Source: Escherichia coli
GTDB lineage: Bacteria; Pseudomonadota; Gammaproteobacteria; Enterobacterales; Enterobacteriaceae
Reading direction: 5' to 3' (one strand)
Length of the DNA stretch: 64,000 nt
NCBI RefSeq assembly: GCF_013122565.1
Contig: NZ_CP053258.1
Both the position numbers and the translations under genes were made by a program. Below are positions 33,650 to 33,943 of the stretch, piece after piece. The stretch's first letter is position 1. Each line of letters starts with the position of its first letter. Under the pieces are notes generated by a model. The model searched no databases. It worked only from the letters and a program-made list of their open reading frames with translations, and was not told the origin of the DNA.

Positions 33650-33737
33650 GGAAGTGTGGCCGAGCGGTTGAAGGCACCGGTCTTGAAAACCGGCGACCCG
33701 AAAGGGTTCCAGAGTTCGAATCTCTGCGCTTCCGCCA
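33650..33737 (+). tRNA. serT: tRNA-Ser (anticodon UGA)
   Basis: 88 nt GGAAGTGTGGCCGAGCGGTTGAAGGCACCGGTCTTGAAAACCGG...GCGCTTCCGCCA; cloverleaf with long variable arm, anticodon loop CT-TGA-AA, 3' CCA. Confidence 0.95.
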
Positions 33738-33747
33738 AATAAGATAA

Positions 33748-33780
33748 GGGGTTAGCTAAATGCTAACCCCTTTTTCTTTT
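33748..33780 (+). terminator. Intrinsic terminator after serT
   Basis: GGGGTTAGC-TAAAT-GCTAACCCC hairpin followed by TTTTTCTTTT. Confidence 0.65.
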
Positions 33781-33943
33781 GCCTGTCTAAATTCTCAGGG
33801 CGTTATATTTGCTTAATGACCTGATAATCCGCTGTTAAACCTGTTCCAGATCAAATGCGTAAAGATGGGTAAAACTTCTGGGTGCCCTTACGCATTATCA
33901 TTATGCTGCTTAATTAATTACATCTGTCATAGAGAGTGACTCA

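Follow-up and report, generated by a model that had tools for sequence, protein, structure and literature searches.

Genes for tRNA-Ser can serve as integration sites for mobile elements, and the serT locus in the 64-kb stretch of Escherichia coli DNA analysed here (hereafter the window) raises the question whether an acquired element sits behind the tRNA gene. A sequence-only reading of the window had answered in the negative and described serT as unoccupied. To follow up this reading we compared the locus with the K-12 genome, with a genome in which the site is filled, with the phages that use it and with the complete E. coli genomes. The interval is almost certainly the native hyaA-serT-yccA region and, as far as sequence comparison can tell, an empty attB of the type used by one family of lambdoid prophages.

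The serT gene and its native surroundings

ARAGORN predicted a single tRNA in the 64-kb window, tRNA-Ser(UGA), which is encoded by serT at positions 33650-33737 on the plus strand. The gene has a length of 88 nt, belongs to class II with a long variable arm and an encoded CCA end, and carries the anticodon UGA at 33684-33686. It reached 57.5 bits with the Rfam tRNA model RF00005 (E = 1e-11; gathering score 29) and is identical to serT of K-12 (b0971) at 88 of 88 positions. This identity together with hyaA and yccA as neighbours on both sides establishes the orthology with the K-12 gene. In the Rfam scan of 33200-34000 no family beyond the tRNA reached its threshold; hits to RAGATH-19, sX4 and ctRNA_p42d overlap the tRNA or the terminator, stay far under their gathering scores and were discarded as noise. 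An open reading frame of 58 amino acids (33566-33742) that overlaps serT was dismissed as a mechanical ORF.

Using a consensus scan we detected a promoter-like site upstream of serT at 33609-33637 (plus strand), consisting of TTTACA, a 17-nt spacer and TATAGT. It agrees with the consensus at 10 of 12 positions, ends 12 nt 5' of the mature tRNA and shows no difference from K-12; this stretch is presumably serT's own promoter. Downstream of the gene, the terminator scan and the folding analysis revealed a native intrinsic terminator at 33746-33781 (plus strand) with the same sequence as in K-12. Its hairpin (33746-33772) has 11 pairs, 6 of them G-C, and a loop of 5 nt, and is followed by the tail TTTTTCTTTT. 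The calculated folding energy is -21.6 kcal/mol (z = -6.0), a value not reached by any of 200 shuffled sequences. A G+C-rich hairpin with a U-run immediately behind it is the sequence pattern of an intrinsic terminator, and the hairpin is predicted to end serT transcription. A functional-looking serT with a promoter-like site of its own and an intrinsic terminator is part of the best explanation of the locus, which as a whole we regard as close to certain.

The genes on both sides belong to the E. coli core. On the left, hyaA for the hydrogenase-1 small subunit is located on the minus strand at 32105-33223, and a tblastn search with K-12 HyaA gave 372 of 372 identical residues over 33223-32108; the gene actually begins with the ATG at 33223, and the GTG at 33250 in the mechanical ORF list is wrong. 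On the right, yccA (33944-34603, plus strand) codes for the FtsH modulator of the Bax inhibitor-1 family, a product identical to K-12 YccA at 219 of 219 residues and matching the Pfam family Bax1-I (PF01027) at 1.7e-47. It is followed by tusE (34694-35023, plus strand) for the DsrC-like sulfurtransferase, with 109 of 109 residues as in K-12 TusE and a match to PF04358 at 6.2e-45. Between the terminator and yccA the initial reading had noticed about 160 bp of ordinary DNA, and this description proved accurate. The gap amounts to about 163 bp (33781-33943) of native intergenic DNA. Positions 33782-33943 on the plus strand, which presumably contain the promoter and leader of yccA, equal the K-12 interval in length and differ from it by 1 SNP.

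The whole window aligns with K-12 MG1655 from 1,074,644 to 1,001,376 in four collinear blocks. The block that bears serT covers 23456-64000 without interruption (40,545 bp, 98.6% identity to K-12, 14 gap positions), in agreement with the claim that foreign genes are missing around the tRNA. The hyaA-yccA intergenic region comprises 693 bp in both genomes and contains 5 SNPs. The K-12 locus (1,031.4-1,032.1 kb) thus has the same tRNA, the same terminator, the same intergenic length and 100% identical HyaA, YccA and TusE proteins; only point differences exist, and relative to K-12 the window is numbered as the reverse complement. Compared with empty-site genomes, no extra DNA was found at the locus. 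No integrase gene lies beside serT or where the far end of an insert would be, and every gene around serT belongs to the K-12 core. A tblastn search of the window for a homologue of the serT-site integrase gave as its best match 23 amino acids with E = 2.3, and the GC content around serT shows the usual intergenic dip only. The window contains no DNA that is absent from K-12, and therefore no acquired system relative to K-12; the serT hotspot can be struck from the places where such a system might be hidden.

The initial reading had also proposed to search 33738-34000 for a second copy of the serT 3' end. We extended this search to the full 64 kb, using blastn with 33650-33800 as query, a word size of 7 and E values up to 50, and no copy above chance level was found. 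The best matches outside the locus itself were 18-19 nt long with mismatches (E = 0.85, minus strand), followed by exact 11-mers (E = 3.1), and the 65-bp core of the attachment site described below is present once in the window. The proposed range was too narrow, because in occupied genomes the second copy is about 50 kb distant. Had the examination not covered the entire window and the collinearity with K-12, the empty-site test would not be valid. A 28-nt match to the query of serT plus terminator turned out to be the terminator's own inverted repeat and not a second att copy.

The same data bear on the idea that a decayed island remnant is still present at serT, too degenerate to be recognized as a repeat or as an integrase gene. 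Exact matches of 11 nt to the tRNA do exist in the window, yet they are at chance level (E about 3), and we found no support for a remnant. The flanks are collinear with K-12 base for base, the intergenic lengths are equal and the GC dip is the usual one. Collinearity effectively refutes a decayed remnant, which has next to no probability.

Anatomy of the attachment site

For the comparison with a filled site we used the O157:H7 strain TT12B, in which a lambdoid prophage of about 50 kb is located between serT and yccA. This prophage contains a fragment of espV, a tccP2 with a frameshift, sodC, genes for head and tail, and a DUF4224 gene; its tyrosine integrase (Pfam PF00589) adjoins yccA. In the literature tccP2 has been placed on prophage Sp4/CP-933M (PMC2884950). 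In blastn, similarity between the window and the serT-side junction of TT12B stops at 33780; similarity to the yccA-side junction sets in at 33678 and amounts to 98.8% identity over 33678-33999. The O157:H7 locus shares with the window the core flanking genes and the native B and B' arms. Present in O157:H7 but not in the window are the prophage of about 50 kb, the second copy of the 65-bp core, the phage-type terminator behind serT and the integrase gene next to yccA. A free counterpart is Escherichia phage Evi (LR597642.1), which shows 91% nucleotide identity over the integrase and its flanks and carries attP.

A four-way alignment of the window (attB), Evi (attP), the O157 serT side (attL) and the O157 yccA side (attR) revealed the patterns B-O-B', P-O-P', B-O-P' and P-O-B', respectively. 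The common core O of 65 bp corresponds to window positions 33678-33742 on the plus strand, and this unoccupied attB core is delimited by the alignment and by the blastn breakpoints at 33678 and 33780. Its first position is the second base in the anticodon stem's 5' strand, and from there it covers the anticodon, the variable arm and the T arm up to the CCA end plus AATAA. The window core is identical to Evi attP and to O157:H7 attL at 65 of 65 positions each. In Evi the core is followed by a homologous terminator hairpin, whereas its arms P and P' bear no relation to the flanks in the window. Since the P' arm beyond the core carries a diverged copy of the terminator, BLAST similarity continues to about 33780. 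The expectation that a copy of the tRNA 3' end would mark occupancy was correct in that the 3' part of the gene is indeed duplicated in filled sites. The actual repeat is different in extent: it begins in the anticodon stem and comprises the 65-bp core and, in addition, the diverged terminator to about 33780.

One core base differs in O157 attR, which has G instead of A at 33738, directly after the CCA. The window, K-12 and the phage attP all have A. We considered this exchange as a scar of integration and rejected it. The G is an SNP of the O157 lineage and no phage footprint, because K-12, which is empty, has A.

The terminators distinguish the two arms. The window terminator is identical to that of K-12 and to the copy on the yccA side in O157, and differs from the phage-type copy; by its sequence it is of the bacterial B' arm type and not of the phage P' type, as would be predicted for an unrecombined attB. 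The stem is AAGGGGTTACC/GGTAGCCCCTT in the phage type and AAGGGGTTAGC/GCTAACCCCTT in the native type. The substitutions, also in Evi, affect both arms of the hairpin and leave a stem of equal stability (-20.7 kcal/mol for the phage type versus -21.6 kcal/mol for the native type). This retention of a diverged but equally stable stem in the P' arm of the serT phages is the reason for considering a function of the serT trailer hairpin beyond termination, either as a regulatory RNA from the 3' external transcribed spacer or as a protein-binding att element. If true, the hairpin or the trailer RNA itself would be under selection, and the native copy in the window would share the extra function. We regard an additional function as very improbable. 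Only the conservation of the structure was observed, and for this the need to stop serT transcription before the prophage is a sufficient and simpler explanation.

The phage-type terminator also bears on the idea that serT in the window is itself a reconstituted hybrid gene of the attL type, with the prophage located beyond the window. Occupied genomes show a phage-type terminator and phage DNA from about 33743-33780 onwards on the serT side, whereas in the window yccA comes directly after a terminator of the native type. A hybrid serT is refuted by this arrangement and retains practically no probability.

The alignment suggests how the empty attB would be used. The lambdoid family that integrates at serT includes the Sp4/CP-933M-like phages and phage Evi, and encodes a tyrosine integrase with a DUF4224 gene in front of it. 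In attP, its members have a duplicate of the 3'-terminal 60 nt of serT together with AATAA, and behind it a diverged terminator of their own. Recombination within the 65-bp core would place the prophage between serT and yccA. As can be read from the att alignment, integration rebuilds an intact serT with a 3' end and a terminator supplied by the phage, and the native 3' fragment is displaced together with its terminator to the yccA side. The crossover most likely takes place in or close to the anticodon loop (33682-33688), between the inverted arms of the anticodon stem; we infer this position from where identity begins on the left and from what is generally known about tyrosine integrases that target tRNA genes. 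An anticodon-loop class of tRNA attachment sites for tyrosine integrases is reportedly part of the Williams 2002 classification. The serT site has in common with this class a block of identity from the 5' anticodon stem past the tRNA 3' end and the restoration of the gene on integration, and its identity boundary suggests that it belongs there. Because the core is identical to attP at 65 of 65 positions, the source strain would be expected to be a competent recipient for serT phages.

Several database records contain related sequences. Stenotrophomonas phages BUCT708 and BUCT709 (OM816834.1, OM816835.1) and Salmonella phage S.Kent 1-2-1 (OR851037.1) each contain about 100 bp that correspond precisely to the 3' part of serT and its terminator (query 1384-1489; 90-94% identity). 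This suggests attP-like tRNA-Ser sites in phages assigned to other hosts, or mis-assigned records. In NZ_CP041417.1, a 306-kb record of non-chromosomal size from strain STEC711, positions 12216-12315 are annotated as tRNA-Ser and show 90% identity to the 3' part of serT and its terminator. In NZ_CP098186.1, a 'plasmid' of 26,994 bp from strain Z0117EC0133, the match starts exactly at the core boundary, and the record contains the integrase end of a prophage, the att core and chromosomal DNA from yccA to yccS. The interpretation of this record as an excised or transducing element was rejected; with most of its genes frameshifted, it probably represents a piece of chromosome that was misassembled or sequenced with low accuracy.

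Occupancy of serT in E. coli

To determine how often the site is filled, a probe of 1.2 kb across the serT locus was compared with 5,426 complete E. coli genomes. The locus was contiguous in 4,654 of these genomes (about 86%) and split in about 771 (14%). In all sampled split cases the break was at probe position 681, which corresponds to window position 33780. A second probe contained the integrase plus the attR junction and was counted at a coverage of at least 80%. This junction was found adjoining yccA in 746 of the 5,426 genomes, so that one tyrosine-integrase family fills nearly all of the occupied serT loci and about 25 of the 771 split genomes fall outside this family. The view of this tRNA-Ser gene as an integration site is thereby confirmed. 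The empty state, on the other hand, is the majority and ordinary condition of E. coli.

Both the site and its prophages have already been described. In published surveys, prophages at serT, or at 'yccA', have been recorded for STEC O121:H19 (PMC8767318), for CC119, including tandem prophages at serT (PMC10132054), for Stx2k phages (PMC8065619) and for an Stx2f phage of Escherichia albertii (PMC10673567). In our comparison the att core was present in up to 4 copies per genome, a number that fits the published tandem prophages (PMC10132054). As the native and the phage-type terminators differ, the definition of the att site (core 33678-33742) and the two terminator types allow occupancy, including tandem occupancy, to be scored in other assemblies.

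The patchy occupancy across the species (14%) would agree with a site that was filled in the past and lost its prophage later by precise excision or in another way, which would make the empty state secondary. Gain and loss of serT prophages seem to be frequent, because occupancy is strain-specific within the L1 lineage of O121:H19, where a single strain only contains a serT prophage (PMC8767318). Precise Int/Xis excision leaves no trace, and for this reason a site that was never occupied and a cured site look the same in the window. RecA-mediated loss between the imperfect 103-bp repeats, in contrast, could leave a chimeric terminator, and none was seen. No phage-type bases are present in 33678-33800, as the terminator and all SNP positions in this segment match empty K-12 and not attP or the P' arm. 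This argues against imprecise, homology-driven loss only. Overall, we consider past occupancy of this site unlikely. Irrespective of its history, the attB of the window is now empty, and none of our results speaks against this: no repeat and no integrase gene accompany serT, and the locus is collinear with K-12 base for base, as the sequence-only reading had maintained.

Other prophage sites and polymorphisms in the window

Two further prophage sites are located in the window. The wrbA gene (6762-7355), a prophage integration site, is intact and unoccupied; WrbA is identical to the K-12 protein at 198 of 198 residues and the region is collinear with K-12. The same collinearity was observed for the torS/torT intergenic region (about 18150-18233), an unoccupied site that has been listed as a prophage site (PMC8767318).

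A further difference from K-12 is a segment missing from the window at the junction 23444-23456. It corresponds to K-12 positions 1,041,907-1,050,961 (9,055 bp) with etk, etp, gfcE to gfcA and IS1D. The etk-etp-gfcEDCBA cluster represents the group 4 capsule genes. Owing to the missing cluster, the ends of appA and cspH nearly meet at 23444-23456. Of the 5,426 complete E. coli genomes, 1,675 have the same contiguous appA/cspH junction, strain 536 among them, and the absence of gfc-etp-etk is therefore a common presence/absence polymorphism. Two smaller segments of K-12 are also absent: at window position 6141-6163 about 150 bp from the interval between ymdF and rutG, and at 11944-11949 about 53 bp from that between torD and cbpM. 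The overlap of the alignment blocks at these breakpoints points to short-repeat variation.
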